NCBI GenBank assembly: GCA_028714855.1
Contig: JAQTLP010000012.1
Location: 1 to 46,893, forward strand
Length of the DNA: 46,893 nt
Direction: 5' to 3'
From: Phycisphaerae bacterium
GTDB taxonomy: Bacteria; Planctomycetota; Phycisphaerae; Sedimentisphaerales; Anaerobacaceae
Part shown: positions 24,617 through 46,085 of the stretch, piece by piece
Numbering within the stretch: position 1 is the first letter of the stretch
How the letters are laid out: each line of letters opens with the position of its first letter
Notes under the pieces: model-generated
Told to the model about the DNA's origin: nothing
The model's database searches: none
The model's input: only the letters and a program-made list of their open reading frames with translations
Program-made: the position numbers and the translations under genes

Positions 24617-27600
24617 ATGGGTTTATTTGACGATTTAGCCGGTTCTAATACTTCGGTTTTGGAAAAACCGCAGGGACAGTTTGTTGGTATGTTCGGCGAT
24701 TTAGAGGAACAGGCCGAAACGGAAATAGTGCCTAAGTCGTTTGAAATAAAACTGCCCGAATCGAACTGGACGCCGCAGCAGGTTGCCGAAAAAGCCAAAA
24801 AGATTTTTGGTGAATCTATACAGCTGGAAGCACCGATAGAATTAGTGGAATTGGCCGATAATAAATATGCCAGCGAGGGGTTTAATTTTTCCGACATTTT
24901 AAGCAGTGCGACAATGACTGCTTATGAAAAACCAACAACTGAAAAAGAACGGGTGCAATTTCATCTTGATTATATCAAGGGCATGAACGATTCTGAACGC
25001 TCTGAATTTATCAAGTGGACAAGACTCGGTAACGTATTCGGTGTTTTCCCTTATTTGAGCAGAAAAGGCGTTCTCAAAAAGATAGGCATAGAAGATGATG
25101 CAGGGGATATTCGCGCTGCAAGTGAAGCGCAGGACATTTATCTTTCACAGTTAAAATTATCCGACCCAGATAAGTGGCGGGGCATAATAGCAGACACCGG
25201 CAGGACTTTGCTTGAATTTGGCCTGATACCGGGCAAAGCCGAAACAATATCCGGAACGGCCTTGAAATTCGCCGAACAGTCTTTACTTCAACTGCCGTCA
25301 AGGGAAATGACGTGGGGGCAGTTAGCGGAACAAAAAGCTAAAGAGGCAGGCAAATCGGCGATAGTTGGCGCGGCCGTTGGTGCGGCGGGTAAATATATCA
25401 AAAATCCATTTTGGGGTTTGGCTGAAAAGGGTGTTGGTAAATATCTACCGGGGCGTATCCCTCTTGTTACTGGTGGCTTTATGGGCTTGACTGCCTTAGA
25501 AGGTGGTACGCGAGAGCAGATAATCGAATCTGGAATCACTATTCTTGGTTTTGAGGCATGGAATATGGCTACTAAGGGATTTTTCCCTGAAGCGGCACGA
25601 AAAGCTAAAGAATTTAATCCAGAACTTAATAAAGTAGCTGATACCGACTTAACAAAGGTTATAGAACAAACCGTAGCAGAAACTAAAGTTTGGGGTTCCG
25701 ATAATAAAGTCGTTACCCTTGATGAATATAATCAAATTAAGGCAAGACGCACCACACAACCCATAGAACCCGCTAAACCCCCTGCCACAGGGGTTATTTC
25801 ATCGCAGGAAGCAAAAATTCCTGCCGAACCTGCCGTAACTACCCCCGAAACGATTGTAGGGCAACCTGAAGTGAAGGGGCAGGGAGAAATAGTAAATATA
25901 CCAGAACCAACCCCCTTGACACAACCAGTTTTTGATACAAGTAAAGTACCTATTTCTGAAGTGTCTGTTGATAAATTAAAACTTTCAAAAGACATACCGA
26001 ACTTCAAAGAATCTGCAAGCTCTGTAACTGGCGAGGTGCTTGGTGGCGAATTGCAGGGTAAGTATGAACGATTAGGAACTGGCCCGATTGTTGTTTGGGA
26101 ACGAGCAAGTGGCGGTTTAGAGGTTATTACGGGTCGTCATAGATGGCGACACGCAATAAGAACAGGTGAAAAAACCATACAGGCACAGATTGTTAAGGAA
26201 GCAGATGGATTTACTAAAGAAATGGCCTTGACAATCGATGCCGAATCTAATATAAGAGAGGGGCAAGGTGGAATAAAAGATTATGCTCAATACTTCAAAA
26301 ACACCGCCATTACCGAACAAGAAGCAAGAGAGAGAGGATTATTATCGCGCACTAAGGGCGAGGTCGGCTTCCGAATTGGTAAAGGTGCGGTCGATGATGT
26401 CTACGCCGCCTTTATCGGCGGAAAACTCAACGAATCAAAAGCCGCAGCAATAGCCAGAGGCGCACCAAATAACGAATCGGCACAACTGGCAGCAATGTCA
26501 GAAGCCGAAAATATGTCGCCGGAAGAACTTGAGCAATTTGCAAAGATACTTGCCAGAACCACACCCTCAGACAAACTAAAATCCACGCAGGGCAATCTAT
26601 TTGGTTATGATGATACATCAATCCGTGAAGCCAGAGCGGTTGCCAGAGAAGTTGGCAAAGAAGTAAAAAATATTAAAGATAGAATATTGTCTGTTAGAGG
26701 CGCGTTAAGAAGGCCGGACACTGCCCGTGAAATGGGATTAGAATTTTCCGATGAAGAAACTATCAAGAAAGAAGTTTCACGTCTTGAACAACGATTAGAT
26801 GAATTAAAACGAACATCAACAACACCCGAATTGTGGAACGAGATGAGAAGACGGGCTGGATTAATTACTGAGGAAGTATCAGAAAAAACAAGACAAACAG
26901 ATTTGCTTGGCCGTCCAATATTAGAAGGTGGAGCAACCGGAAAACAGGAGGAATTTCTTGACAAAGAAGAATATAAATTGCCAGAACCAGACATTGAAGG
27001 GCAAGGACGTCTTTATGGTGGCAGGCAAGCGGGTTCAACCATAATATTCGACCCACAGGAATGGTCGGATATGGTTAAAATAGGGACATTCCATCTCGAA
27101 GCAGGCGCAAGAAAATTTGAAGATTGGTCAACTAAAATGGTGGAGGACTTGGGAAAATCCATCGAACTTAACTTGCCTGATATTTGGAATGATATAAATA
27201 AACCCAAAACCATACCCGAAATCAAAGGGGAAGTCGGCGTTCAATACCCACAGATTCAAGGTGCAGGAGAGCTTAAACAAAGAGGACTTTCAAAGAGTAC
27301 CGAAGAAACGGCAGTAGCCAAACGAATTGAGTTACAAGCTGAACGTTGGCCGGGGTATAGGGTTTTAGATACGGAAAAACAGGCAAAAAAAGTCGTGGAT
27401 TTGATGAACTACGATTTGAAACGTGCCAAACGAATAGCAATGGGCATAGAAGAACCGCGTATTTCTGATGGGGTTTATCCCGAAGATGTTTATGCCGGAA
27501 TAGTCGAAAGAGCCACTAACGAAGGTGATAGTGAAACATTACGAGACTTAGCATTGACCAGCAGATTAAATTCGGTAGCTACGGAAATTGGCAGGAGAAT

Positions 27601-27820
27601 ACAAGCACTCGATACCGGACTCGATAAATCTGAAAGTCCCGTAGCGGCAATAAAGGACATAGTAGTTACTAAAGAAGAATCATTCAAATTACGGACTGGT
27701 AAGGAGGCGAAAGTTGCCAAAAAAGAAGGTGTTGATGAAATCAAAAAATCAATAACAAAAGAAAGCAAGACCAGAACCGTTAAGACGTGGGAAGATTTTA
27801 TAATTAGTATTCAATGTTAA
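24617..27820 (+). CDS. Large internal virion / ejection protein (gp16-like), 1067 aa, with an embedded ParB/Srx-like nuclease domain
   Basis: EVITGRHRWRHAIRTGEKTIQAQIV matches ParB box II (GERRWRAA...IPAIV), around 26080..26290. Confidence 0.55.
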   Translation: MGLFDDLAGSNTSVLEKPQGQFVGMFGDLEEQAETEIVPKSFEIKLPESNWTPQQVAEKAKKIFGESIQLEAPIELVELADNKYASEGFNFSDILSSATMTAYEKPTTEKERVQFHLDYIKGMNDSERSEFIKWTRLGNVFGVFPYLSRKGVLKKIGIEDDAGDIRAASEAQDIYLSQLKLSDPDKWRGIIADTGRTLLEFGLIPGKAETISGTALKFAEQSLLQLPSREMTWGQLAEQKAKEAGKSAIVGAAVGAAGKYIKNPFWGLAEKGVGKYLPGRIPLVTGGFMGLTALEGGTREQIIESGITILGFEAWNMATKGFFPEAARKAKEFNPELNKVADTDLTKVIEQTVAETKVWGSDNKVVTLDEYNQIKARRTTQPIEPAKPPATGVISSQEAKIPAEPAVTTPETIVGQPEVKGQGEIVNIPEPTPLTQPVFDTSKVPISEVSVDKLKLSKDIPNFKESASSVTGEVLGGELQGKYERLGTGPIVVWERASGGLEVITGRHRWRHAIRTGEKTIQAQIVKEADGFTKEMALTIDAESNIREGQGGIKDYAQYFKNTAITEQEARERGLLSRTKGEVGFRIGKGAVDDVYAAFIGGKLNESKAAAIARGAPNNESAQLAAMSEAENMSPEELEQFAKILARTTPSDKLKSTQGNLFGYDDTSIREARAVAREVGKEVKNIKDRILSVRGALRRPDTAREMGLEFSDEETIKKEVSRLEQRLDELKRTSTTPELWNEMRRRAGLITEEVSEKTRQTDLLGRPILEGGATGKQEEFLDKEEYKLPEPDIEGQGRLYGGRQAGSTIIFDPQEWSDMVKIGTFHLEAGARKFEDWSTKMVEDLGKSIELNLPDIWNDINKPKTIPEIKGEVGVQYPQIQGAGELKQRGLSKSTEETAVAKRIELQAERWPGYRVLDTEKQAKKVVDLMNYDLKRAKRIAMGIEEPRISDGVYPEDVYAGIVERATNEGDSETLRDLALTSRLNSVATEIGRRIQALDTGLDKSESPVAAIKDIVVTKEESFKLRTGKEAKVAKKEGVDEIKKSITKESKTRTVKTWEDFIISIQC

Positions 27821-31547: not shown

Positions 31548-31853
31548 ATGGTTGAGAACGGCAATAGCAAAAAAACGTGGTTTGAGATAACTCATTTTTC
31601 ACTAACTACATTAGCATCTATACTGGTGCTTGCTGTTGGTATTTATGTTGGCTCTGTTGATAAAGACATTGAGAAGATAGACGAAAAGTTATTCAAACAC
31701 CTAACCAACGATGAAATACACGCTCCTACTCAGCAACTTGTCAATCGAAGTGAATTTAATATCTATCAAAAAATGAGGGACGACCAGATGAACACTGTCA
31801 AAGAATCCCTCGATAGAATTGAAAAGGCGTTGGAAACTAAAGATGGACATTAA
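31548..31853 (+). CDS. Holin-like membrane protein, 101 aa (single TM, charged C-terminus)
   Basis: FSLTTLASILVLAVGIYVGSV; RBS AAGGA. Confidence 0.4.
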   Translation: MVENGNSKKTWFEITHFSLTTLASILVLAVGIYVGSVDKDIEKIDEKLFKHLTNDEIHAPTQQLVNRSEFNIYQKMRDDQMNTVKESLDRIEKALETKDGH

Positions 31854-32037
31854 GGAACATCTTGACAATCTTGACGAAACATACGAAGATTTAGAAAATG
31901 AAATCAAGGTTATGCACACTGAAGGGCATTTTGCTGATGATATAGTTTTACGGGAAGTTGTGAATATAAAACTGGCAATAGCAAAGGCCAGAAAGAACAT
32001 TTTAGGAAAAGTTAATTTTAAGGAGAACAGATTATGA
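31846..32037 (+). CDS. Small coiled-coil protein (~63 aa from ATG 31846)
   Basis: ORF; weak RBS. Confidence 0.3.
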   Translation, partial: DIKEHLDNLDETYEDLENEIKVMHTEGHFADDIVLREVVNIKLAIAKARKNILGKVNFKENRL

Positions 32038-32267
32038 TTGATTACATTATTTCAAACCTGCCCGCTTTACTCGGAGCGTTGTTGGCTATCGGCGTGGTGT
32101 GGGCTTATGCCAGCAAGATTTTGGTCGTAGTTAAAGAGGTCGCTGATTTGCTTAATGCTATACTGGTAGCCCTTGCCGATAGAAACTTGACCAAAGAGGA
32201 AATTAACACTATCATAGAAGAAGCGAAGCATATTCCGATAGCGATTAAAGGACTTCTGAAAAAGTAA
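32034..32267 (+). CDS. Holin-like small membrane protein, 77 aa
   Basis: N-terminal TM LPALLGALLAIGVVWAYA, charged tail; RBS AAGGAG. Confidence 0.45.
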   Translation: MIDYIISNLPALLGALLAIGVVWAYASKILVVVKEVADLLNAILVALADRNLTKEEINTIIEEAKHIPIAIKGLLKK

Positions 32268-32287
32268 CCTGAAACAAGAGGTGGCTT

Positions 32288-32731
32288 ATGTTGGCTCTTT
32301 TAACGGCAGCATTTCAAGCTATTGCGGCTGTATTTGGTTATATGACCAAAAGTATAATAAGTCTGGCAGATAAGGTCTATAAAGAATATTTCTCGGCAGA
32401 AGTCAAACGCAAAAAAGCCGCCCTCAAAAAAGCTGATGAAGCTATCGACAAAGGCGACCGGCAGGGCTTATTAGACGCAATCAACGATATGAAACGAATC
32501 TTTATTGTTGCAGCACTGTTGATTATTTCCGGTTGCAATCCTTTTGAGCAGGACACTTTAACACCAATATACGCAATTAAAGGTGAAGAACTTCAATTCG
32601 TTAAAACAGTTTATGATGTTAATGACCCTAATAAGGTTGACTATTACAGGATAGAAACAACGGGCAAGCATACAGGGGCGTATCTAAGCAATCGAGTTCT
32701 TAAAAAGATTTTTAAGGTTGAAATAAAATGA
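32288..32731 (+). CDS. Spanin-like protein, 147 aa. It has an N-terminal TM plus charged helix (i-spanin-like) and an in-frame internal signal + lipobox (MKRIFIVAALLIISGC, o-spanin-like).
   Basis: Both features read in the translation; RBS AAGAGGTGG. Confidence 0.45.
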   Translation: MLALLTAAFQAIAAVFGYMTKSIISLADKVYKEYFSAEVKRKKAALKKADEAIDKGDRQGLLDAINDMKRIFIVAALLIISGCNPFEQDTLTPIYAIKGEELQFVKTVYDVNDPNKVDYYRIETTGKHTGAYLSNRVLKKIFKVEIK

Positions 32732-33032: not shown

Positions 33033-33070
33033 ACAGCCCAAGACTGAAAACGTCAAGGGCTGTTTTTATT
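33033..33070 (+). terminator. Intrinsic terminator at the point where the two arms converge: ACAGCCC-17 nt loop-GGGCTGT, then TTTTTATT
   Basis: 7-bp stem + T-run read directly. The T-run overlaps the stop of the minus-strand gene; there is an A-run on the other side. Confidence 0.5.
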
Positions 33071-33623
33071 GCAATACCTTTTCTGCTTCAAACAAGTTGT
33101 CAACATTTGGATAATCAGTTCTAACTATATCCGCACATTGAGCAAGAGTTTCTTTTCTGGCGTAGGCGGCGGCGGCGGCGTAGTCGGCGGCGTAGGCGGC
33201 GTAGTCGGCGGCGGCGGCGGCGGCGGCGGCGTAGGCGGCGGCATAGTCGGCGGCGTAGTCGGCGGCGTAGGCGGCGGTGTTGGCGGCGGCGGCGGCGGCG
33301 TAGGCGGCGTGCCTTACATCATCGAGAGTTACGCCATTTTCACCCCTCGCCCATTGCTCTGCCGTTTCAATAGCTTTTAGTGGTCGCAATTCACCTTTTT
33401 CTATATAAGGCAAAGCAAGTCTGGCACACTTGCAAGCCGTCAAAACCAACTGTTTTCGCTTATCACAGCCCGGTTCGCCGGATAGTTTACCAATTAGCCA
33501 GAGCATGTGGTCTCCTCTTTCACAGACCAACCACGCAGCTTGCATTGAACTAAACCTTTTCCCCCATTCAATAGCTTCTTGGCAAGCACCTAATTTTACA
33601 AGTTTATCAGTCCAGTGTTTCAT
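33066..33623 (-). CDS. Ala-rich heptad-repeat protein (185 aa from ATG 33623, RBS AAAGGAAA). It has an N-terminal Cys/Trp-containing domain followed by (AAYAADY)-type repeats.
   Basis: ...RHAAYAAAAAANTAAYAADYAADYAAAYAAAAAAAADYAAYAADYAAAAAYA...; the longer ORF reaches 33716. Confidence 0.6.
   Translation of the reverse strand: MKHWTDKLVKLGACQEAIEWGKRFSSMQAAWLVCERGDHMLWLIGKLSGEPGCDKRKQLVLTACKCARLALPYIEKGELRPLKAIETAEQWARGENGVTLDDVRHAAYAAAAAANTAAYAADYAADYAAAYAAAAAAAADYAAYAADYAAAAAYARKETLAQCADIVRTDYPNVDNLFEAEKVLQ
33170..33310. repeat. GCC/GGC-based microsatellite-like coding repeat ((GCC)n interspersed with TAC/GAC) encoding the AAYAADY array
   Basis: ggcggcggcggcggcgtaggcggcgtagtcggc... read directly. 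Confidence 0.85.
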
Positions 33624-33734
33624 TTTTTTTCCTTTCTTAAAATTGTTAATAATATCAGGGCGTTGCTTCGGCCTATGAGAAATTGGCATTAGCATATTTT
33701 TATTGGCAACCCACAACGCCCTGCGCTCATTTTG

Positions 33735-34607
33735 TTATTTCTTGTCAATCGCAAAGGGGAGTTCTCGCTTTCTTATACTTTCGGGCAAATCTGTGAAATT
33801 ATGGATTATCTTAAAATGGTCTTTTGTGCCTTTGTGGTATGCCTTGACCCACACCGGCACGCCAGCGGCCTTGCATTGTTCCACTACGCTTTCAATCCAT
33901 TCGCGCGGACAATAACGAGCGTTGGGGCCGGTCTCTGCGCCGACAATACAAAGACTTAGCGAAGATATACCCAACTTTTCCCCCTGCGAATACAACTTAC
34001 CGCAGCTTGTGTTATTCCGAACAACGCCGCTATTTCTCTTTGCCGTAATTCCCTCTTCCGTAGCAATTGGCGTATTTCCAATTTTATTCCATTCTAACAA
34101 ATCTATTGTAGAAATCAAGGGTTCAAATGAAATAAATTTATGTGCCGCCGGTATCTGTAAAAGTATCGGTATTCTTTCGTTTGCATACTGTTGGTTTTCC
34201 GCTGTTACGCCGAGCCAGAGGTTTTTAGGGGGGCATATATCCTTAAAACATTCCGTTATTCTTTCGGCTCTTTTTGTCAACCCTAAAAAGATATGCTGGG
34301 GACATTTTTCTACCGTTACCATTGCGTCAGTGAAAAAAGTATAAGGCACTTCACTATGCCAAAGGTCGTTCCAGATTGAAAATACTGTCGGTTTTCGAGT
34401 ATGCAGGGGAAGGTCAAGATTACCGTGACGGAATTTAATTAACCCCTTCCAGTTGTAACTTTTTATCAAGGCAAATTTATGAAACCTTTTCGCCATTGCC
34501 TCCGACCAACAGTTATCACACGCAGGACTTACTTTGGTGCAACCATCAACCAACTGCCACGCCTTTTGCCAGTAACGCCCTGCCTGTTTCATCTGTTCAA
34601 AATTCAT
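33735..34607 (-). CDS. DUF5131 / phage Gp37-Gp68 family protein, 290 aa
   Basis: N-terminal GCTKVSPACDNCW signature; RBS AAGGAG. Confidence 0.55.
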   Translation of the reverse strand: MNFEQMKQAGRYWQKAWQLVDGCTKVSPACDNCWSEAMAKRFHKFALIKSYNWKGLIKFRHGNLDLPLHTRKPTVFSIWNDLWHSEVPYTFFTDAMVTVEKCPQHIFLGLTKRAERITECFKDICPPKNLWLGVTAENQQYANERIPILLQIPAAHKFISFEPLISTIDLLEWNKIGNTPIATEEGITAKRNSGVVRNNTSCGKLYSQGEKLGISSLSLCIVGAETGPNARYCPREWIESVVEQCKAAGVPVWVKAYHKGTKDHFKIIHNFTDLPESIRKRELPFAIDKK

Positions 34608-34631: not shown

Positions 34632-35174
34632 TCAAACCAACTTTAAGGCCAGTTTGCCTATCTGCTCTTTTTTCCTGTGGTCTATTTCTTCCGGTGATAA
34701 TATTTCCGGTTTTTTACGGTGCATTAGCTCGTCAAACTGTTTGCGTAGTTCGGCTTTTTCTTCCGGAGTAGGCGGGACAACGGGCGGCTCTATCTTCTTG
34801 TAACTTTCCTGCCGCTTTGCCGCACGCGCCTTAATTGCTTCAATGGTCATATAATCATCAATTATAAAATTGTTTTCCAAGAACCGCCAAAACTGCTTTT
34901 CCTGTCTGTTATCAGGTCTACTTCGTATTAGAAATTGGTATAGAGTCCACGCATAACTCCAAATGCAATTTTTACTTAATAGTACAAGGGCATAATTGTC
35001 TATGGCTTTGCATATTTGCTCAACAGTATAATGCTTAAGGACATCTTTAATGGCAGTTTCCGTTTCGTAGGTTAATTCCCTATGGCTTTTCCAGTTGCCT
35101 TGACCTTTATATCTATTCCAAGAGCTAAAAACGGTTTGAATTTCTTCCGGAGTCGGCGGTTTAAATTTCTTCAT
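34632..35174 (-). CDS. Hypothetical protein, 180 aa
   Basis: ORF. Confidence 0.45.
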   Translation of the reverse strand: MKKFKPPTPEEIQTVFSSWNRYKGQGNWKSHRELTYETETAIKDVLKHYTVEQICKAIDNYALVLLSKNCIWSYAWTLYQFLIRSRPDNRQEKQFWRFLENNFIIDDYMTIEAIKARAAKRQESYKKIEPPVVPPTPEEKAELRKQFDELMHRKKPEILSPEEIDHRKKEQIGKLALKLV

Positions 35175-35238: not shown

Positions 35239-36507
35239 TTATTTACCGTCAGTTGTAACCATTATATTTGGAGGGTTATTACCAGTAGTCCACAGATTTT
35301 GCGGCAAAAGTCCTTGCCATTTGTCAATCCATTTTGCCTGATTCTCAAGCTCTTTAAGTTTTATGAAAGCAGGATTACTGTTGGCTTTGGCGGCAGCATC
35401 GGCAACAAGCTGGATACCCTTTGCTTCTCCCTCGGCTCGTTTTATACGTGCCTGTGCTTCAGCATCGGCAGCCATAACGATAACTTTATTTTTGTCGTCC
35501 TGTGCTTGTTTTAAAGCAAGAGCCACATTCTTTTGCTGTTGGGATACAAAGACATCATCAATGGCTTTTTGAATATCCTTATTCTCGTATTCAAAGCCGC
35601 CAAACATACCAATATTCTGAACTGTTATTCCGCGTTGGGTAAAAAACTCCGTAATTTCCTTAACGACCGCATCACTAATAGTATTCTTAATATTGCGGAG
35701 TTCGTCCATTTTATATCCAGCGGCAACCTGTTGGACTACTTTTTGAATTTTGCCACGAACCTCTAAATCCATAACAGTCGCAAGCGAACCCGTAGGATAC
35801 CAATACAGGAATGTTGCGGCGTCTTTTTCCTGAACGTAAGCAGTACAGGTAAAGCCGGTACTAAACCCGATACTGTCCTGTGATTCTACCCAAATAGCTT
35901 CATTTTTTCCGGTTGTTCCCGTTGTTTCGTTGACTGTCCACTCGCGGGTAACGGGAGTTCTGTCCACCTTGATTACAACGATGTTTGGAATCCAATTGCC
36001 ATTTCGGTTAAAGCGACCCGTTTTCTGCCAGCGATGTGATATTTGAATACGTTTAGTAGCTACCTGCATTTTTTGTAGAGATTCTACTGACTGCATTTTT
36101 TGTTGCAAATCAGTTTTGTTTTCGAGTGGTATTACAAAAGCTGTTTCATTATTTTTAACTTCAACAAATTCTTCTTTGTCGTATGGCTTCGGACAACCCG
36201 TTAATACAAATGACGAGACAGACAAAATAGCCAAAATAGCAATTTTAGCAAGGTGTTTTTGAATTAGTTCTTTTGCCGGTTTCCACCAAACCAAAAGCAA
36301 GATAACGATACAAACAAACCACCCCCATGAACCTGCGCCGGATTGAAGTTGTTGAATAAGACGCAGAGCTTCTCTTGAACCATCTTCGTTCATTTGGCCA
36401 AGAGCAAGGTTTGCGGTAGTGTTGGGCAACACGCCCTGATACAAAGCGATATTTATTGTCGCTACCATTACTACAAATACAGTAGTTAATACAATTCTCG
36501 TTTTCAT
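35239..36507 (-). CDS. Membrane-anchored SPFH / band-7 (stomatin/prohibitin/HflK-C-like) protein, 422 aa
   Basis: N-terminal hydrophobic segments plus a lipobox-like FVLTGC; C-terminal AEAQARIKRAEGEAKGIQLVADA typical of SPFH; RBS AGGAG. Confidence 0.55.
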   Translation of the reverse strand: MKTRIVLTTVFVVMVATINIALYQGVLPNTTANLALGQMNEDGSREALRLIQQLQSGAGSWGWFVCIVILLLVWWKPAKELIQKHLAKIAILAILSVSSFVLTGCPKPYDKEEFVEVKNNETAFVIPLENKTDLQQKMQSVESLQKMQVATKRIQISHRWQKTGRFNRNGNWIPNIVVIKVDRTPVTREWTVNETTGTTGKNEAIWVESQDSIGFSTGFTCTAYVQEKDAATFLYWYPTGSLATVMDLEVRGKIQKVVQQVAAGYKMDELRNIKNTISDAVVKEITEFFTQRGITVQNIGMFGGFEYENKDIQKAIDDVFVSQQQKNVALALKQAQDDKNKVIVMAADAEAQARIKRAEGEAKGIQLVADAAAKANSNPAFIKLKELENQAKWIDKWQGLLPQNLWTTGNNPPNIMVTTDGK

Positions 36508-36544
36508 TTTTTAATCTCCTAAAAAAGGTTAATAATTTTCCACA

Positions 36545-38055: not shown

Positions 38056-38550
38056 TCATATATTGAATTTTTCTGTAACACTTTTATCTAAAATTGTTTG
38101 TATCCCATTTTTAGTCAAAATACATATTTTATTAAGATACTTTTTTGACAATTTGACCTTTTTGGCGTTATTTTTGGAGTTAAAAACCATTGTTATTTTG
38201 ACCTCTGGCTGATACTTATTGAGTAATTTTAACTTCCGCCGTGTATCAGCTTCAAAAAGCCCTTTTCCTTCCCAGTATTCTAAGGTATCATTATTGTTGC
38301 GTATGTCAAAATCTACAAGCCAAGTATCATCGGGAAACTTAAACGTGGTTTGTTCATACCACCAATCTTTAATCTCGCCGGCTGTTTTCAAGAATTGGAG
38401 ATATTTAGCAATCCGCCAATCCAGTTTTGAACGAAAGTCATATTCTTTGCTGCCAATAGTATCGTGGATTCGCTGGTTATTGTATTCTTTAACCAGTGGC
38501 CCTTCACAAAAACCCAATTTTCTTGCCTCCTGTAGGGATAGTTTTGCCAT
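38056..38550 (-). CDS. DUF1064-family phage protein, 164 aa (predicted PD-(D/E)xK-like fold)
   Basis: SKEYDFRSKLDW...LKTAGEIKDWWYEQTTFKFPDD...DFDIRN...EYWEGKG...DTRRKLKLLNKYQPEVKITMV pattern; RBS AAGGAG. Confidence 0.5.
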   Translation of the reverse strand: MAKLSLQEARKLGFCEGPLVKEYNNQRIHDTIGSKEYDFRSKLDWRIAKYLQFLKTAGEIKDWWYEQTTFKFPDDTWLVDFDIRNNNDTLEYWEGKGLFEADTRRKLKLLNKYQPEVKITMVFNSKNNAKKVKLSKKYLNKICILTKNGIQTILDKSVTEKFNI

Positions 38551-38569
38551 ACGATTCCTTCTTTCTCCT

Positions 38570-39165
38570 TTTACTGATTCGCTACGCCTTCGCTTTGCTA
38601 TACCTCACGTTGCCATACGCTACCATACCTTTGCTCAACAATACATTGCCATACCGCACCCCGCCATAGCGTTGCGATACGTTACTATGCCTTCACATTG
38701 CCCGACTTCACCATGCCACTGCCTTACTTTGCCGAACGCTGCCGCGCCTTTGCAAAACAAAACTTTACATTACTTTACGTTGCCATTGCAATACTGTGCG
38801 CTACTTCGCCTGCGCCTTGTTATACAGCACCTTACGCTACCATACCTTAGCTAAGCTAAGCTAAACAAAGCATTGCCGCTGCGTTGCGATACGTTACTAC
38901 GCCTTCACATTGCCCAACTACGCCTTGCGCTACTTCGCCTTCGCTCAACAGTACATCACCATGCCTTTGCTATACTTTACGCGACGCTGCCTTTGCTCGA
39001 CAATACATCACGACACAACACAACGCCCTCGCGAAACCATACTCCACCTTACGCCACGCTGCCCTTGCAATACAATACCATGCTTAACCTTTACAACACA
39101 TTGCGTTACAATCTCCACTTTGCCTCTGCGATACTTCGCCTTGCAAAACTCTGCCTTTGCATCAC
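38570..39165. repeat. ~600-bp intergenic block that is strongly G-depleted on the + strand. It consists of degenerate nested repeats: the motif TTGCTCAACAATACAT occurs five or more times, a ~40-bp segment GCGTTGCGATACGTTACTAYGCCTTCACATTGCCC is duplicated 222 bp apart, and there is a (CTAAG)3-4 run.
   Basis: Read directly; the + strand ORFs over it are compositional artefacts. Confidence 0.8.
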
Positions 39166-39767
39166 AAAACCTCATATACAAAAGAACCCATTCCAGAATT
39201 TCGCCATTGCAGTAGACCTCTTAACGCACCATAGTCGAGCCACGGTTTCAGAAAATCTTCAAGTTTTTTATCGAGTAACATTATCTCTGCTTCAAAGGTC
39301 GTACCGGCAGGCAACATTTCGGAACGTGCCAGAGATATTCTTTCACCCCGCATCGTTTGTCCCCGCAAAGGTCTTTCACAAAACTCTATCTTACCGCCTT
39401 CAGGTATCGTTAAAAACATCTTTCGAGGTCTGACAAATAACATCATATCAATGGTTCGTTTATACAGATATTTCGTCAGGCCGATTTTCTTTAATTCCTC
39501 CTGTGTCATTTTGCCGGACATTATCAATGCCAAGCAGGAATCTTTGAAAAATCCTTTTAATTGGTAATCCCAAATAAACGGCCTTCCGTCCTCTCTGGGG
39601 AATATCGTGCTGGACTTTTCGAGGGCTTCATCTTCAGGCAACGCCTCGATTTCGTCCTGTGCCGGTACTTTGGCAGGATTTTTTGAGAGAATAAAGTCCG
39701 TTGCGGCGTCCTTATTTCCCGACAATGTTCCTAAAACCGGCTCTACAAATTTAATTCTTACTTTCAT
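39162..39767 (-). CDS. Hypothetical protein, 201 aa
   Basis: ORF. Confidence 0.5.
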   Translation of the reverse strand: MKVRIKFVEPVLGTLSGNKDAATDFILSKNPAKVPAQDEIEALPEDEALEKSSTIFPREDGRPFIWDYQLKGFFKDSCLALIMSGKMTQEELKKIGLTKYLYKRTIDMMLFVRPRKMFLTIPEGGKIEFCERPLRGQTMRGERISLARSEMLPAGTTFEAEIMLLDKKLEDFLKPWLDYGALRGLLQWRNSGMGSFVYEVL

Positions 39768-40014
39768 TTTTCGCTCCTTTAGTGTTAAAATTTACGGTGG
39801 TTCTAATAATTTCTTGGTAAGCTTCAAAAGCTTTTGTGTAAGCCATATAAGCCCTATAAGCTTTCCAATAAGCCGTATTAGCTTCATTTTTACGGGCTTT
39901 GGAATAAACCTCACGGGCTATCTCAAAATTCTTTCGGGCTTTATTGAGAGCATTATGAGCTTTTTCAAATGCTTTTGTCTTTTTCTCGTCCATTTCTATT
40001 GTTATGTATTTCAT
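39751..40014 (-). CDS. Small basic helical protein, 87 aa
   Basis: ORF. Confidence 0.4.
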   Translation of the reverse strand: MKYITIEMDEKKTKAFEKAHNALNKARKNFEIAREVYSKARKNEANTAYWKAYRAYMAYTKAFEAYQEIIRTTVNFNTKGAKNESKN

Positions 40015-40308
40015 CTATTTTTTTCTCATAATTTTTTCAGCGGCTTTTTTGTGTTTATCCTCTACAAGATTTTTGGAAGGCCACCCAACCCAAGTTCCCC
40101 ATTCATCGTAACCGAGTCCCCTTGTGTCGCTTTCTATTATTGCCAAGTCGGGTTCGTCTTTTTTAAGTTCCATTTTTACTATATGCCGAGCGGCACGGTG
40201 GGATTTTTCATCGCAAGGACGGGTAATCCAAACAATCGGTTTTTTTTTATAACTCCGACTCATATCAACTTTACCTCGATTCCGGTATTTCTGTTTCCCT
40301 TTAGCCAT
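40015..40308 (-). CDS. Small basic protein, 97 aa
   Basis: ORF. Confidence 0.4.
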   Translation of the reverse strand: MAKGKQKYRNRGKVDMSRSYKKKPIVWITRPCDEKSHRAARHIVKMELKKDEPDLAIIESDTRGLGYDEWGTWVGWPSKNLVEDKHKKAAEKIMRKK

Positions 40309-40484
40309 AAATATTCGTTAAACCTTCTGCAAATCTCACCGGCTATCTCCTTGCGTATCCCGCACGCAACTACGGTCTTGCCGAGCAGGATATTGCCTAC
40401 CTCGTTTTTGTTTTCGTCAAAGGTTACTGCTGCGTAGCTAAGTTGCAACGGTGTCCTTGCAAGGGTATTGGTATTGTAGTGCAT
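40260..40484 (-). CDS. Hypothetical protein, 74 aa (overlaps its neighbour)
   Basis: ORF. Confidence 0.3.
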   Translation of the reverse strand: MHYNTNTLARTPLQLSYAAVTFDENKNEVGNILLGKTVVACGIRKEIAGEICRRFNEYLWLKGNRNTGIEVKLI

Positions 40485-40511
40485 TAGCTTTTTATCCTTA
40501 ATTTAATTCCT

Positions 40512-40976
40512 TTAAGGTGTTAATCCGGTTAAAATCAAATTCGACATTTTGCCCGTTTCTATTGCCTTATTTATCTGTGGTAAAATTTCCTCTGAGACAG
40601 TACGTCCATTTGGTAAATAAGTGTATGCCATAAACTCATCTTCAAAAGCAGCAATTCCGCTTTCAACAGCTTCTAATTTTGCAAGAATAACCAGATGTAA
40701 CGCCCTCCAGTTTGACCTGCACGCTTGCTCCCACGCCGCAAGCATATCCTCGTTACTGCGCCGCTTTCGTCCGCTTGGTGTTGTTTGATAATTATCAGGA
40801 TTAGGTAAAATCAATTTAAGCTTGATAGCCATTCCTTTGTACGCAAATGCTATTATTGCTTTTTGATGGTCTGTTTGATAGGCAAAATGAGACGCTCCGT
40901 ATCTTGATAAAGTTTTCTCGATAGCAGCTTTTGACCGTTCTATACTTACCCCGCTTGTTTTTGCATATATGCTCAT
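40512..40976 (-). CDS. Hypothetical protein, 154 aa
   Basis: ORF. Confidence 0.5.
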   Translation of the reverse strand: MSIYAKTSGVSIERSKAAIEKTLSRYGASHFAYQTDHQKAIIAFAYKGMAIKLKLILPNPDNYQTTPSGRKRRSNEDMLAAWEQACRSNWRALHLVILAKLEAVESGIAAFEDEFMAYTYLPNGRTVSEEILPQINKAIETGKMSNLILTGLTP

Positions 40977-41055
40977 TTTTCACTACTCCTTTTTCGTATC
41001 AACCATTCTCATCTTAATTCCTTCAATCAGTTTGCAACCTTCCTCGTAATCAGGA

Positions 41056-41427
41056 TTAAGTTTCTGATAAATGTCTATTCAGAGATTGTAAAGCGTTCAA
41101 TTCTGCCTCTACGCTTTGCAATTTTGATACGCCATTTTTGTATGCTGCTTCTGACTGTTCGAGTCGCAATTTGCTTTCCCAAACGATACCTTTGGCTATT
41201 TTTTCACAAGTAGAGGCGGGGGGGTCTTTGATAATCTCATCTTCAAGGGATAACGCCTTCCCATTTTTTAATCTCATCAAAGTAATAGCAAGTTCTTTGT
41301 CATAAAGGGCTATCGCCAACGCCTTGTCATTGCCTAATCCTTCAAGTAATCCCCTGCCGGTTTCGAGTAGTTTTATCTTACTTTTGATTTTTTCTGCGAC
41401 AATATATGGACTTTCTTCTTTTGACAT
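41056..41427 (-). CDS. Coiled-coil hypothetical protein, 123 aa (contains a G7 homopolymer at 41218..41224)
   Basis: ORF. Confidence 0.45.
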   Translation of the reverse strand: MSKEESPYIVAEKIKSKIKLLETGRGLLEGLGNDKALAIALYDKELAITLMRLKNGKALSLEDEIIKDPPASTCEKIAKGIVWESKLRLEQSEAAYKNGVSKLQSVEAELNALQSLNRHLSET

Positions 41428-41480
41428 ATTTACCTCATAACTTATATTTAGCTTTAAATTCCTCTACTTGCCGTTGACGC

Positions 41481-42101
41481 TCAAAAGGGCGAATCATCCA
41501 CCTCGTCCGGTCTATGCCTATTGCCAACGGCATCAATATCGTCTTGACCGCCTTCCGTTATGCTTGGGTCTGGTTCGGGGGTAAAATACTTTTCGCCTTC
41601 CTTGATAAACTTAACATCTTGCAGGACTAATTCGTAAAGTCCTTGTCCTAAAGCCCGTTCGCCCTGTATATATGCACACAATACTTTGCACCTTGCCCAG
41701 TCCTCACTAATAGTCCCTAAATTGCTTTGGGGGGTAGGCGAATATAATGGATTTGACGGCGGAATAGACGCTCTGGCGGGGGTTTTAGCGGGTTCAACGG
41801 TTACCCTCTCATTCCAAAACCCACCGTAATACATTATATTCTTGAACGGGTTCGGGGCAATGTTAAACGCTAACCGGCGATTTATAAAACCATCCCCTAT
41901 GGTTTTGTCCTTGCCAAGCCATATTTTGACCTTTTGCCGCTCATTATTATCGTCCGTAATTATCACTTGCTGGAAACGTTTGCCATCTTTTGTGAATTGT
42001 ACCGGCTCAAAACTATTGACCGTGCCAAACATAGCTATTTTTATCTGGTAGCCCTTTTCATCTTTTTTGCCGTCCGCCAATCTAATTTGCTCAAAGTTCA
42101 T
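41481..42101 (-). CDS. SSB-like single-stranded DNA-binding protein candidate, 206 aa
   Basis: OB-fold-like N-terminus; acidic C-terminal tail ending EVDDSPF, reminiscent of the SSB DDDIPF tip. Confidence 0.45.
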   Translation of the reverse strand: MNFEQIRLADGKKDEKGYQIKIAMFGTVNSFEPVQFTKDGKRFQQVIITDDNNERQKVKIWLGKDKTIGDGFINRRLAFNIAPNPFKNIMYYGGFWNERVTVEPAKTPARASIPPSNPLYSPTPQSNLGTISEDWARCKVLCAYIQGERALGQGLYELVLQDVKFIKEGEKYFTPEPDPSITEGGQDDIDAVGNRHRPDEVDDSPF

Positions 42102-42417
42102 TTTTCACCTTCTTTCCTTTCAGTTCTTGTTTCAATTCTTCAACCCTATTCATATTTTGTAAAATACACGATTCGCACATTTCTATCTCGCAGGTAGGAC
42201 ATAATCTATTGCCTTTGAGTTTATCGCACTTTTCGCAACCAGTACTTTCTATTTCTTCTTGGGTTATCTGGGCAAACGAATCTGCTCTTTGAAAATATCT
42301 TAATCCCCAATCGCATCGGCAACATCGACATTCATATTGCGGGGGATTGCTTGCAAGGCAGTCTACAATTATTCTGGCCTTACATTTAGGACAATGCAAA
42401 TCATCTCTTATGCTCAT
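42091..42417 (-). CDS. Cys-rich multi-CxxC zinc-binding protein, 108 aa
   Basis: CPKC...CRCCRCDWG...CEKC...CPTC...CESC. Confidence 0.45.
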   Translation of the reverse strand: MSIRDDLHCPKCKARIIVDCLASNPPQYECRCCRCDWGLRYFQRADSFAQITQEEIESTGCEKCDKLKGNRLCPTCEIEMCESCILQNMNRVEELKQELKGKKVKNEL

Positions 42418-42430
42418 TTAATCTCCCAAT

Positions 42431-43252
42431 TTAAATCCCATAACGGCGGTGAAAATTTTCTCTATCTTTAAGAAACATTTGTTTGTACTGGTTAATTTCT
42501 ATTGAGATAACCGGCCTTGAAAATCCTTGTTGTGTTTTATCATTCAAAGGAATCACCATCATTTGCTCATAGGGACTTTCGCCGTTTTCTTCCTCTGCAA
42601 TAATATAGGCGGCAATCTGCTTGAAATCTTTAAGTTTTTGCGGAGTTCGCTTAACATCGGCAAGCGTTTTTTTGCCTTCATAATAGCAAATTCTTATATC
42701 TGGCGTACCACCGAAACGATGTTCTTTGCTTATAATCGACTCGCCACAAATCATTTTCTCGATAGGATATTTTTTGAGGAAATCAGGGAAACTCCATCCT
42801 TCAATAGGTAGTTGTAATTTGCCTTGTTTCACAATAACCAAATCAGACCAAGTGCCGTCTATCTTTTCAACAGGTTTCCATTCACCGGTCTTTATAAATT
42901 CGGCGACTTGAGCGTGAATTAGACTTCCTTGCGAAGCATATTGCTGTAACTCAATCGCAGTTACCCAAAAGTCAGTGTCCCAATTAAGGATAGATGTTAC
43001 AGACGGGAAATCACCGTACATTCTGAAATCCGTGCGCTCCCGTTGTATTTTTTCGATAGTCAGGGCTTGTTCGTCCCGTTTAAAGTTTTGGTAGCAAATT
43101 TTCTGAAGTTCTTTCTGCCAATCATCTATAATATTAGTTACCATAGACACATCCGTTTCAATTTCTACTTTTGCCGTATAACTCGGTCGTGCATTTTGAA
43201 AAGAACCCGTTGCAATTACTCCCGAAAATCCTGCTGATATTTTAATCTTCAT
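42431..43252 (-). CDS. PD-(D/E)xK-family nuclease candidate (recombination exonuclease-like), 273 aa
   Basis: FGGTPDIRICYYEGKKTLADVKRT (D...DxK arrangement); sits next to the SSB-like gene. Confidence 0.4.
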   Translation of the reverse strand: MKIKISAGFSGVIATGSFQNARPSYTAKVEIETDVSMVTNIIDDWQKELQKICYQNFKRDEQALTIEKIQRERTDFRMYGDFPSVTSILNWDTDFWVTAIELQQYASQGSLIHAQVAEFIKTGEWKPVEKIDGTWSDLVIVKQGKLQLPIEGWSFPDFLKKYPIEKMICGESIISKEHRFGGTPDIRICYYEGKKTLADVKRTPQKLKDFKQIAAYIIAEEENGESPYEQMMVIPLNDKTQQGFSRPVISIEINQYKQMFLKDRENFHRRYGI

Positions 43253-43469
43253 TTATTTCCTCGCATTCCTGTTTGCCAATAATTTCTATCATTTCTACGC
43301 TGGTTATGCACTGACTATCAATATCTTGCTTATCATACCCTTCGCCTTTGGTTATCATATTGCACACTTCGTCCTCGCTGTCGGTGATAATGTGGACATA
43401 GCCAGTGCCCACAAATTCTACTTTTACCAAATGGTCTGTTTGCATTATTTCACCTCTTTCACATACCAT
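43242..43469 (-). CDS. Small acidic protein, 75 aa
   Basis: ORF. Confidence 0.35.
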   Translation of the reverse strand: MVCERGEIMQTDHLVKVEFVGTGYVHIITDSEDEVCNMITKGEGYDKQDIDSQCITSVEMIEIIGKQECEEINED

Positions 43470-43786
43470 ATTATTCTTTTCTCGCCCTTGTAATTCTTAA
43501 ACATTGCAAGGGTACACACATTACAGATTTCTCTACCGCAAGGGTGTGCGCAATTCTGGACTGCACCGTATCTTCGCAAATCAGGTAATCTTCTTGCACA
43601 AACAGCATAATCAATGCCCGACTTTTCAGACAGTTCAAGACTTGTAACGCCATTATGTTCGGTCAATGCTTTAAGCACCTTAAACGCCTGTTCATTTATA
43701 GTCGGCCTGTTCTTCTCGGCAGTTTCAAAACTGCTTATCGGGTCGGTGTTTGCTGATAAAGGTTTAATGTCAAAAAGAGTTTTCAT
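43445..43786 (-). CDS. Winged-helix DNA-binding protein, 113 aa (MarR-like wHTH)
   Basis: GVTSLELSEKSGIDYAVCARRLPDLRRYGAV. Confidence 0.45.
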   Translation of the reverse strand: MKTLFDIKPLSANTDPISSFETAEKNRPTINEQAFKVLKALTEHNGVTSLELSEKSGIDYAVCARRLPDLRRYGAVQNCAHPCGREICNVCTLAMFKNYKGEKRIIWYVKEVK

Positions 43787-43789
43787 TGT

Positions 43790-44191
43790 TTACTCCTTTA
43801 TTTCCTCAAATTCATCGCCAATAATATATTTAACTTTATCCGTCTCTGCTGTTCCATATTCAGCGTCTAAACTCATATCTTGGAATATGTATTTTACTGC
43901 CTTTTTCCACCTCTCGCGGCTGGCTCGCAAGTCTTTGTTTTCTAATGTCATATTATCTTTATCTTCAAGGTGTGCTGTCCTAAATTGCTGATATTCTCCT
44001 CTAATCTCTTTGTTTTCCGCCGATAAGCGGTCGATAAAGGCGAGTGCTTCGTGCAAATCCTTCATAAGTTTGTTTGGCAAACTTGTAGAAACAGGAGCAT
44101 TATCTGGCTTAATCTGTATTGTTGCATTGTGCCACTTTATCTTCATTCTTTCTGCAAACTCTTCCGCCGTTTCCTTCTTATCGTTCTTCAT
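43790..44191 (-). CDS. Hypothetical protein, 133 aa
   Basis: ORF. Confidence 0.45.
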   Translation of the reverse strand: MKNDKKETAEEFAERMKIKWHNATIQIKPDNAPVSTSLPNKLMKDLHEALAFIDRLSAENKEIRGEYQQFRTAHLEDKDNMTLENKDLRASRERWKKAVKYIFQDMSLDAEYGTAETDKVKYIIGDEFEEIKE

Positions 44192-44409
44192 TTTTTCTCC
44201 AATTCTTTTTTTGCTTCCTGCAAAGCGGTGATAAGCTCATCAATTTGTTTAGGTGCATACCGAAAACAATATGTTATTCCAGTTCTTATCTCTAAATACT
44301 TCTTGGATTTATGTATGTCCAAAAACAATTTATTTCCTTCTTTGTCTTTAATCACTCTTTCCATTTGGCTCTCCACTTGCCATGTGCATATACACATCGG
44401 CGTATTCAT
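44188..44409 (-). CDS. Hypothetical protein, 73 aa
   Basis: ORF overlapping its neighbours by 4 nt. Confidence 0.4.
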   Translation of the reverse strand: MNTPMCICTWQVESQMERVIKDKEGNKLFLDIHKSKKYLEIRTGITYCFRYAPKQIDELITALQEAKKELEKK

Positions 44410-44683
44410 TGGCTAATTCCCTGTCAACAGCCGTGTTTACTTTTTCCATTGTTTCCCTGCCAATTTTGCCGTCCGGTTTTGCTTTGACGAGGTTCTGTAA
44501 TTCTATTACCTTCGCTCTGATGCTCACCTTCTCAATCACCGGCTGCGGGGTATTGCATAGCGACAACACATACCAGCAGGTAGCCATTACAAGGACGAAT
44601 ACGCCAATCACGCCTATTGTGCGGTGCGTTTGTTTGGGTCTGTAATTAACCTTCATATCGTTATCTCCTTTGTCTATGCACAT
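44348..44683 (-). CDS. Small membrane protein (TM VIGVFVLVMATCWYVL)
   Basis: ORF. Confidence 0.4.
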   Translation of the reverse strand: MCIDKGDNDMKVNYRPKQTHRTIGVIGVFVLVMATCWYVLSLCNTPQPVIEKVSIRAKVIELQNLVKAKPDGKIGRETMEKVNTAVDRELANEYADVYMHMASGEPNGKSD

Positions 44684-44991
44684 TTTTTGCTCAGGCGGAT
44701 TTTGTTCAATTCCTCAAGTTTGGCAAGGAATAGGTCGGGGTGGAAAAGATAGTCGTATTCTTCTTTCCCGCACTCAAATTCTGCATCAATTTCTTTGGCG
44801 GGACAAGCATCACACGTAAGACCTCCCCCCCTATGTTGTTTTGCCCATTCACAAAAGAAACAATTATTATACAGTTCATCTTCGTATCCGCTTTTTTCAA
44901 GCCATTCCTCTTTAAAGTATCCACTATGGACAATATCCCTCCACATCCTTAGACATTCATACCAAGTTTTGTCTAAAGTAAGTTTTTTCAT
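44674..44991 (-). CDS. Cys-containing hypothetical protein, 105 aa (contains a G7 tract at 44825..44831)
   Basis: ORF. Confidence 0.4.
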   Translation of the reverse strand: MKKLTLDKTWYECLRMWRDIVHSGYFKEEWLEKSGYEDELYNNCFFCEWAKQHRGGGLTCDACPAKEIDAEFECGKEEYDYLFHPDLFLAKLEELNKIRLSKKCA

Positions 44992-45103
44992 TGTTCAGTT
45001 TCCTTTCAAAAGCGGGCAGTTGGATTTATCCTGTTATTATAATGTTGCATTCAGAGTTTTCTATTTTGCGTCCCTGCACGTAATCCACCAACTGCCAGCA
45101 AAT

Positions 45104-45316
45104 TTAGTTTTTCCAGCACTTATCAAGTAGGTTGTGGTATTGCATATAACCAGAACTTTTGTATCTTATCAGCAATTGCCACATATTTTCGAGACCAATA
45201 AGGTTCTGGAGTGGCGCAAGATTGGCTATTGCATAAAGTTTATCCACTTCATCTTGTGTTTCCAAAACAAGTTTGACTGGTTGAAACTTTTTAGGTTCTA
45301 TTTCTTCTACTTTCAT
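45104..45316 (-). CDS. Hypothetical protein, 70 aa
   Basis: ORF. Confidence 0.35.
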   Translation of the reverse strand: MKVEEIEPKKFQPVKLVLETQDEVDKLYAIANLAPLQNLIGLENMWQLLIRYKSSGYMQYHNLLDKCWKN

Positions 45317-45629
45317 TTTTCATTCTCCTTTTTGCCCATTTAAGTAAAATAGCTTCTTGTGCCTCTACAAAACCTGTCGGAATCGTCCAACCAGTTAATT
45401 TTACAATGCCAGCTTTTTCAAGAGCATTTGGTATTCCTTCATTTTCTCCCCAACCCTTCAAAAAGACGTGGTTTTTAGGTGGAATCAGTTCAAGTGCAAC
45501 GGTAGCAATGAATAGAGGTTCTTCGTCTTCAACGCTTACACCTTTAATCGATACACTGCCATTGTCGTAGTGGCTAAATTGCAGGTCAACAGCTTCATCG
45601 ACATACTTAGCTTTTATATAAACTTTCAT
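45291..45629 (-). CDS. Hypothetical protein, 112 aa
   Basis: ORF. Confidence 0.45.
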   Translation of the reverse strand: MKVYIKAKYVDEAVDLQFSHYDNGSVSIKGVSVEDEEPLFIATVALELIPPKNHVFLKGWGENEGIPNALEKAGIVKLTGWTIPTGFVEAQEAILLKWAKRRMKNESRRNRT

Positions 45630-45839
45630 ACTTCTGTCCTTTTATATAAAGTTATAATTCCAAAAAGTGCGGGGCTGCGGAGGGAGGGTGAAAGGATTAT
45701 ACCCCGCACTTAAAACTGCTACTTAAATATATCCCACTTCCTAATATGTTTCCAAAATACAACAAATGCACAAGCAGTTTCGATAACACCTGCTATAAAA
45801 AATACAATACAATCAAGATAATTATGTTCCATAATATCT

Positions 45840-46085
45840 TTACTTAATAGGGCTACTTTGTAAAATCACTAATAACGCCGATGCGGTGATAACCACATCG
45901 AAACTCCGTCCACCTTCCCTGAGTTTTTGTAACAATTCTTTGAAAGAATCATCTTGTTCTTTTTTGATACCCAATAAGTCCAGAAGTGCCATACAAAGTT
46001 TTTGTTCCTGTTCGGGAGTAAGTGGTATTTCTTTTCCGTCAACGTCTAAAACTATTTTCTTAATCAGGTTTACTTCTTTTGCCAT
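45840..46085 (-). CDS. Hypothetical protein, 81 aa
   Basis: ORF. Confidence 0.4.
   Translation of the reverse strand: MAKEVNLIKKIVLDVDGKEIPLTPEQEQKLCMALLDLLGIKKEQDDSFKELLQKLREGGRSFDVVITASALLVILQSSPIK

Follow-up and report, generated by a model that had tools for sequence, protein, structure and literature searches.

The window analysed here is a 46,893-nt stretch, positions 1 to 46,893 of contig JAQTLP010000012.1, and the gene in question is an open reading frame (ORF) on its minus strand (35239..36507) that encodes a 422-aa protein of the SPFH (band-7) family. SPFH proteins such as stomatin, prohibitin, flotillin or HflK/C build membrane-partitioning cages, and their roles in bacteria are poorly understood. 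We revealed that this gene encodes a divergent SPFH-family protein in which an SPFH body is followed by a long helix, a second helix and a tail that is conserved. At the N-terminus, two units are fused that elsewhere are encoded by neighbouring, separate genes: an approximately 85-aa protein with two transmembrane (TM) helices and a classical lipoprotein precursor. On balance, and with a slight preference, we consider that the SPFH lipoprotein and its two-TM partner together make up a selected accessory cassette, which would organise the outer face of the host membrane.

The whole ORF, consisting of the two-TM module and the SPFH lipoprotein precursor, starts with the ATG at 36507 and stops at 35239-35241. 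A Shine-Dalgarno sequence, AGGAG, is located 8 nt 5' of the ATG (36516..36520, minus strand), and this fixes the start of the long, fused form. The protein contains three hydrophobic N-terminal segments (about aa 5-23, 56-74 and 86-104) and an LTGC lipobox at aa 102-105. An earlier reading made from the DNA letters (hereafter the sequence-only reading) had described a 422-aa ORF with N-terminal helices and an LTGC lipobox, and this description was borne out as it stood. What that reading overlooked is that the N-terminal helices form a conserved partner module in their own right, which is fused to a lipoprotein precursor.

The SPFH/band-7 identity, which the sequence-only reading had also proposed, passed tests of both sequence and fold. 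The Pfam Band_7 model (PF01145, clan CL0433), the search suggested for the C-terminal half of the protein, matched aa 184-336 (35500-35958) with 26.7 bits (E 6.8e-6), the gathering cutoff being 23.6, and the match spans profile positions 41-175 of 176. The same Pfam family is precomputed for most of the 120 listed homologs. In PHROG, the protein matched phrog_200, annotated as 'lipoprotein', with an E-value of 7.5e-23 over aa 68-415 (profile positions 56-357 of 379). A phmmer search against the sequences in the Protein Data Bank (PDB) found prohibitin 9urz_B (E 2e-5, aa 254-388) and, more weakly, HflC. We also modelled the single chain with AlphaFold2 (AF2) from 30 homologs; the mean predicted local distance difference test score was 78.5 and the predicted template modelling score was 0.57. 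When this model was compared with the PDB by Foldseek, the top 50 matches were all SPFH or vault proteins (major vault protein). Prohibitin, stomatin, erlin, HflK/C, flotillin and QmcA were matched at a probability of 1.0, and for prohibitin, stomatin, erlin and HflK/C the E-values ranged from 1e-10 to 1e-8. The SPFH domain of mouse stomatin (4fvj) superposed on the model with a template modelling score of 0.75 and a root-mean-square deviation of 2.9 Å.

According to the AF2 model and Foldseek, the SPFH alpha/beta body occupies aa 113-307 (35587..36171, minus strand). It is followed by a long helix of 67 residues, rich in Ala, Glu, Arg and Lys and equivalent to coiled-coil 1 (CC1) of the SPFH proteins that form cages (aa 310-376, 35380..35580, minus strand), which the phmmer alignments to prohibitin and HflC cover, and by a second helix of the AF2 model, equivalent to coiled-coil 2 (CC2) (aa 379-396, 35320..35373, minus strand). 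The C-terminal tail (aa 397-422, 35242..35319, minus strand) contains invariant W397, G399 and P402 and short predicted strands; it is a candidate cap or oligomerisation element.

The N-terminal part of the protein is a two-TM partner module (aa 1-85, 36253..36507, minus strand), composed of TM1 (about aa 5-25), a loop (aa 26-55), TM2 (about aa 56-74) and a basic tail. The loop holds a conserved ALGQMNEDGS motif and is predicted to be extracytoplasmic. Homologs of the window protein occur in two lengths. Short forms of about 340 aa open with a classical lipoprotein signal peptide whose Cys lies around residue 20, and in long forms of about 420-450 aa, to which the window protein belongs, the same signal is preceded by two extra TM helices. 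The two units are also found as separate genes. In the split viral loci L003, L013, L026 and L039 (L numbers denote loci in our collection), a few codons separate the stop of a small two-TM gene from the 'MK...' start of the lipoprotein gene behind it. Bacillus phage G is also split: its gp64 is an 84-aa protein with two TM helices and the loop motif AMGQLENS, and the gp64 gene ends 2 nt before gp65.

We built a hidden Markov model (HMM) of the two-TM module from 51 fused homologs and searched 10,274 six-frame ORFs from 127 loci (1.37 Mb). The module was fused to the SPFH gene in 82 cases, split and upstream in 26, and immediately downstream in 2 (L044 and L051), and no match in this set lay away from an SPFH gene. 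An independent database search with the module profile returned 133 standalone proteins, all of 75-109 aa; in all three that were spot-checked, a Band_7 gene starts 2-3 nt downstream. The downstream arrangement was seen in two Planctomycetota bins (L044, 4718-6172; L051, 6013-7313), and the loop of these two-TM proteins (ALRQMNEDGSREQLR) is near-identical to that of the window protein. The same gene pair is thus known in three arrangements: fused, upstream and downstream. This pattern of fusion and fission provides strong evidence, drawn from gene organisation, for the predicted partnership of the two-TM protein and the SPFH lipoprotein. When 21 modules were scanned against Pfam, no family and no NfeD domain were found, only scattered chance matches to TM models, and PHROG gave no family either. 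We considered the module as a holin and rejected this, because it is also fused in chromosomal genes among housekeeping genes; a single chance match (E 0.046) was seen among the 21 modules, and no lysis genes neighbour it. Identification as an Imm or NfeD protein was likewise dropped for want of a credible Pfam or PHROG match.

Directly behind this module lies an internal signal of the signal peptidase II (SPase II) type (aa 75-105, 36193..36285, minus strand), with the n-region KPAKELIQKHLAK, the h-region IAILAILSVSSFV and the lipobox LTGC. The codon of Cys105 is at 36193-36195, and this Cys is invariant across a 30-sequence alignment (A1) that covers both length classes. Among 228 unique family sequences there are 136 unique fused forms, and all 136 keep the lipobox Cys, which further supports the lipobox that the sequence-only reading had pointed out. 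All 136 have G, S or A at position -1, and the net charge of their n-region is at least +1 (mean +3.3). The uncharged stretch before the Cys has a median length of 16 residues (interquartile range 15-17), equal in fused and unfused forms, and TM1 and TM2 are longer (median 19 vs 16). The window protein has a [LVI][ASTVI][GAS]C lipobox together with an h-region and a basic n-region; its signal, however, does not stand at the extreme N-terminus, since the Cys is residue 105 as against a median of 21 in unfused relatives. An internal translation start yielding a separate lipoprotein was rejected because the junction in the window gene (aa 75-90) contains neither a ribosome-binding site nor a start codon. 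A single full-length family member without the lipobox Cys was observed (L011, 5869-6891), and it carries a plain N-terminal TM anchor.

The positive-inside rule predicts a cytoplasmic position for the N-terminus and the basic loop KPAKELIQKHLAK, and an extracytoplasmic one for the conserved loop and everything past Cys105. This would put Cys105 and the whole SPFH part at the periplasmic face of the cytoplasmic membrane, as in HflK/C. Read most simply, the fused form would still be a substrate of Lgt and SPase II, as judged from the conserved signal.

The family is large, with more than 455 protein-database clusters. In bacteria represented by one genome per species we counted 178 loci, overwhelmingly in Verrucomicrobiota and Planctomycetota, where the cellular copies stand alone among housekeeping genes. 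Viral occurrences include at least 35 IMG/VR contigs of 14-248 kb, and among GenBank phages, Bacillus phage G and one faecal phage carry family members. The sequence-only reading had called this an unusual accessory gene for such a phage, which was an overstatement in view of these contigs, phage G, 27 viral SPFH-fold proteins in BFVD and published phage SPFH lipoproteins.

The window protein has its closest relatives in Sedimentisphaerales (class Phycisphaerae), where L043 and L041 (= P0002) are chromosomal genes whose products are 80-81% identical to it over all 422 aa. This agrees with Sedimentisphaerales as the likely host of the phage. At the nucleotide level the similarity to these copies is about 76% and ends at the gene borders. 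L041 and L043 themselves lie at different loci, and their 94.5% identity is confined to the gene. Their GC content at third codon positions (GC3) is 0.45-0.47 vs 0.54-0.70 in the flanking bacterial genes, and they too look horizontally acquired. The phage gene has a GC3 of 0.355 vs 0.41-0.51 in other phage genes, and it is AT-rich compared with the bacterial flanks as well. In a rough neighbour-joining tree, the deepest and most diverse branches are viral, and the clade of the window protein is apart from the main Planctomycetota clade. The border-limited similarity, the differing loci, the GC3 offset and the deep viral branches indicate that the gene moved between phages and bacteria, and either direction is possible. 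In comparison with the Sedimentisphaerales copies, synonymous sites are saturated (synonymous differences per site, pS, about 0.75), the nonsynonymous distance (dN) of the mature part is 0.08, and the ratio to the synonymous distance (dN/dS) is about 0.03-0.04. Low dN in the face of saturated synonymous sites argues that the phage copy is maintained by selection. A recent capture from the host was rejected, as the saturated synonymous sites make the exchange an old one.

Within the phage, the gene is located near the 3' (distal) end of a long leftward non-structural gene array, in the order endonuclease I, HNH, N6/N4 DNA methylase, SPFH, a 180-aa ORF, DUF5131 and an Imm5-like gene. None of the neighbours in the window is conserved in related loci. 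The sole related locus that shares other window genes is L011, which has a methylase and the ORF 40512-40976. The neighbours in 30 viral loci are heterogeneous and include no lysis families, and a link to lysis was rejected; the holin- and spanin-like ORFs of the window lie at 31.5-32.7 kb on the plus strand. In cellular loci no conserved third gene was found, no neighbour family being present in more than 12 of 82. The sequence-only reading had paired the SPFH gene with a DUF5131 gene. Such a gene is indeed present (33735..34607, minus strand; Pfam E 1.3e-51), but the 180-aa ORF (34632..35174) separates the two, and DUF5131 adjoins the SPFH gene in none of 39 related loci (35 IMG/VR viral contigs and four others). 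The pairing is thus incidental, and DUF5131 was rejected as a functional partner. In PADLOC, the DUF5131 protein hits two candidate-defence components, PDC-M41B and PDC-M30B (E about 1e-47), which hints that this family has been seen before in candidate defence islands, and it also shows a weak match to TIGR04471, 'radical SAM mobile pair protein A'. Judged by gene content, the two-TM/SPFH module appears to be a self-contained cassette, apart from lysis, replication and DUF5131 functions.

Taken together, we propose the following scheme for the cassette. The phage would express the module from its non-structural gene array, Lgt would lipidate Cys105, and SPase II would cut in front of this residue. 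A small polytopic membrane protein and a lipid-anchored SPFH subunit would result, as in the split-gene versions. By homology, the lipoprotein may oligomerise via its long helices into an HflK/C-like ring or dome that fences a membrane patch. This ring or dome would sit on the outer face of the cytoplasmic membrane, with the two-TM protein as an embedded partner or client. Its role, the weakest step of the scheme, might lie in organising or stabilising the host cytoplasmic membrane at its outer face, or in regulating access to a membrane client while the phage infects. The cassette would be shared and exchanged between phages and their Planctomycetota and Verrucomicrobiota hosts. We also hold, more tentatively, a reading in which the family is a two-component extracytoplasmic SPFH system, consisting of a lipid-anchored subunit and an obligate two-TM partner, which is made as a fused precursor cut at the internal lipobox and is phage-borne and repeatedly moved. 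In this tentative reading, the fused form would be that of this phage and of most Verrucomicrobiota and Planctomycetota, and the cassette would be most diverse in phages, including the jumbo phage G.

Several points weigh against the cassette as proposed. The Band_7 score is just 3 bits over the cutoff and covers part of the domain. The quality of the AF2 model is moderate, and poor beyond aa 397. The profile of the SPFH-lipoprotein family gave no matches in the PDB at E <= 0.01, so the link in sequence to solved SPFH proteins is thin and depends mostly on the predicted fold. In the searchable literature, we came across no case of a lipobox that follows two TM helices. Asp never occupies position +2; by the Lol rules of E. 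coli, the lipoprotein would be sorted to the outer membrane and parted from the two-TM protein, although the rules in Planctomycetota may differ. Some of the 'viral' contigs in IMG/VR and some of the 'cellular' contigs from metagenome-assembled genomes (MAGs) may be misassigned. Finally, lipidation, internal cleavage, oligomerisation and contact between the two parts are all predictions, and the physiological role in infection is the weakest step.

The internal cleavage is where a somewhat doubtful alternative enters, namely that the product is an uncleaved three-TM SPFH protein in which the third segment is a plain anchor, the Cys is used otherwise or is a relic, and no separate two-TM product exists. 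The missing precedent for SPase II cleavage after two TM helices would fit this, as would the continuous helical N-terminal region in the AF2 model; L011, with its plain TM anchor and no Cys, indicates that the lipid anchor is dispensable. The conservation described above speaks for cleavage instead: the Cys and the small residue at -1 are kept without exception, the n-region is always positive, and the h-region has the length of a signal peptide rather than of a TM helix, a length identical to that in unfused forms. A relic Cys would have drifted at about 40% overall identity. Moreover, split, fused and reversed orders coexist, and this implies two separable products that function.

As for function, the sequence-only reading had suggested control of FtsH, superinfection exclusion or an abortive-infection-like effect, for none of which gene context speaks, and the first two have been weighed here against a general organiser of the membrane. 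In its action on lambda CII, FtsH is classically regulated by HflK/C, and the phage protein could likewise be a modulator of FtsH, forming a cage that encloses or excludes FtsH on the periplasmic side and alters the turnover of membrane and regulatory proteins of host or phage. The predicted membrane side and the domain order are shared with HflK/C, the fold matches include FtsH-HflK/C structures (7vhq, 7wi3 and 9cz2), HflC is weakly matched in sequence over the long helix, and ftsH lies two genes upstream in L041, the closest bacterial locus. We nevertheless regard FtsH modulation as quite improbable. The protein reaches 15.8 bits with the NCBIfam HflC model (NF008259), whose cutoff is 427; the SPFH gene is single and not one of a K/C paralog pair; and the family is present in a Bacillus phage and stands alone in bacteria. 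Prohibitin, stomatin and erlin match equally well or better in Foldseek. In addition, ftsH was found within ±6 kb of the family gene in 1 of 85 cellular loci, and a linkage to ftsH was rejected on this ground. The other explanation, which we also consider unlikely, is superinfection exclusion or a block of entry: an envelope module at the periplasmic face would stop the DNA entry or the receptor function of competing phages, like Llp, Cor, Ltp, Imm or Sp. A phage-encoded lipoprotein with a small two-TM protein in a non-structural arm would suit such a role, and so would its wide exchange among unrelated phages, as is usual for accessory 'moron' genes; a role in adsorption or DNA entry was speculated for a phage SPFH lipoprotein in a 2026 paper (PMC13239085). 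On the other hand, no similarity to known exclusion proteins was detected. The EexN model gives 15.1 bits against a cutoff of 33, the SPFH protein matches no known defence system in PADLOC, and the 'sie' neighbour of a different SPFH gene in phage PhiSH19 is unrelated and has no TM segment. The phage also looks lytic, since the ORFs scanned, which are not all of its ORFs, revealed neither an integrase nor a repressor. Finally, the module is conserved among chromosomal housekeeping genes in many Verrucomicrobiota and Planctomycetota, and this setting argues for a general membrane function.

The window itself is a podovirus-like phage, deposited as part of a Phycisphaerae bacterium MAG. It encodes terminase, portal, major capsid, T7-like tail tubular proteins A and B and internal virion proteins, in agreement with the phage origin and podovirus type given by the sequence-only reading. 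Its first 127 nt (1-127) are identical to its last 127 nt (46767-46893). This indicates a complete circular assembly and a phage genome of about 46,766 bp (about 46.77 kb), close to the approximately 47 kb of that reading; an overlap of this length is what a k=127 assembly typically leaves at the ends of a circular contig. No close relative was found among GenBank phages by megablast with 24 kb. The annotation of the phage is very poor overall. No DNA or RNA polymerase was recognised among the window ORFs scanned, a 1193-aa ORF has no PHROG match, and a 1067-aa ORF has a weak ParB-like PHROG match alone. The annotation-poor set has the coordinates 13424-17005 (plus strand), 24617-27820 (plus strand) and a minus-strand arm at 39162-46868, and seven minus-strand ORFs scanned between 39162 and 46486 gave no Pfam match.

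Several other features of the window were observed. An ORF-poor region of about 600 nt (38544-39175), flanked by the endonuclease I gene and the minus-strand gene next to it, contains an array of degenerate short repeats. The motif TTGCNNTAC occurs in 15 copies in the window vs 6.7 ± 2.6 expected by chance (15 copies were reached in none of 100 shuffles), and 11 of the 15 are inside this region, all on the plus strand. From this arrangement, the repeats may be an iteron-type origin or a protein-binding array. The Imm5-like protein (33066-33716, minus strand; PF21805, E 1.8e-10) includes a long Ala/Tyr/Asp repeat (AAYAADYAADYAAAYAAAAAAAADYAAYAADY...), whose DNA is a GGC-type tandem repeat on the opposite strand (33165-33310). 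In a 147-aa ORF (32288-32731, plus strand), a TM segment at the N-terminus is followed by a charged helical stretch and then, in frame, by an internal 'MKRIFIVAALLIISGC' lipoprotein signal. This ORF resembles a spanin pair read in a single frame, or else an o-spanin whose translation begins at an internal ATG; it also shows a weak Cor-like PHROG match at aa 68-122. Two small TM proteins (31548-31853 and 32034-32267) precede it. These ORFs (31548-32731) are probably the lysis cassette; no endolysin was recognised.

The family offers a compact and genetically testable system, whose two parts are always together, sometimes fused, and under strong selection. It occurs in many uncultured phages and also in a pair that can be cultivated, phage G and Bacillus megaterium. 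If the internal lipobox is cleaved, the rules of lipoprotein prediction would be extended, as current predictors look at the N-terminus alone, and a route of lipoprotein biogenesis without precedent in the literature searched would have been found. Internal cleavage would also provide a clean case in which gene fusion and fission reveal that two proteins are partners. As to phage biology, if the proposed role is true, the phage would deliberately remodel the host cytoplasmic membrane at its outer face in the course of infection.

Among known SPFH systems, E. coli HflK/HflC resembles the window protein in having an SPFH body, a long helix, a second helix, a tail and an N-terminal anchor, and in being on the periplasmic side (predicted here). 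In Foldseek, the HflK/HflC structures align over about 330 columns with E-values of 7e-9 to 8e-6. Unlike HflK/HflC, the system described here has one SPFH gene, a predicted lipid anchor in place of a TM helix, and a two-TM mini-protein as its partner; the failure of the equivalog model and the lack of ftsH linkage set it apart as well. Prohibitin (PHB1/PHB2; 8rrh, 9urz and 9o9z) is the best match in both phmmer and Foldseek (E 2.3e-10 in the latter). Unlike the window protein, prohibitin is a mitochondrial hetero-oligomer with TM anchors, its identity is 12-15%, and the family profile does not reach it. Stomatin-NfeD operons such as E. coli QmcA-YbbJ (8z5g; fold E 3.6e-7) likewise pair an SPFH gene with a gene for a small membrane protein. 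QmcA, however, faces the cytoplasm, and its NfeD partner has an OB-fold, whereas the window partner consists of two TM helices and a loop of about 30 aa without an OB-fold.

SPFH proteins have been reported in phages before, and their presence there has been called unexplained (PMC7760394 and PMC13239085). They are annotated in RaK2-like jumbo phages (PMC7760394), and SPFH/band-7 lipoproteins whose role is stated to be unclear are annotated in Vi01-like phages and in Schitoviridae such as GIB1 (PMC3220722, PMC10892097 and PMC13239085). PhiSH19 AER70219, Sajous1 gp200 (Vi01-like) and GIB1 have, as here, a phage-encoded N-terminal lipobox (LLSGC) followed by SPFH. The Vi01-like/PhiSH19 lipoprotein differs in being 263 aa long, in escaping detection by the profile of the window family (E 0.16), and in having no two-TM gene upstream. 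The PhiSH19-type protein is a different SPFH subfamily. The 'superinfection exclusion' protein of Vi01/PhiSH19 was considered as a homolog of the two-TM module and rejected, as it contains no TM segment. Thus, phage SPFH lipoproteins as such are already known; in this subfamily, a two-TM partner that is obligate and a fused precursor whose lipobox is internal appear to be undescribed. Phage G gp65 is a true member of the family, 38% identical over aa 82-422. It differs in its split two-gene form, in its 498-kb myovirus genome and in its Gram-positive host, and the two genes are named gp64 and gp65 with no annotated function. The Sedimentisphaerales genes L043 and L041 share the same fused architecture with the phage gene, at two different loci among housekeeping genes.

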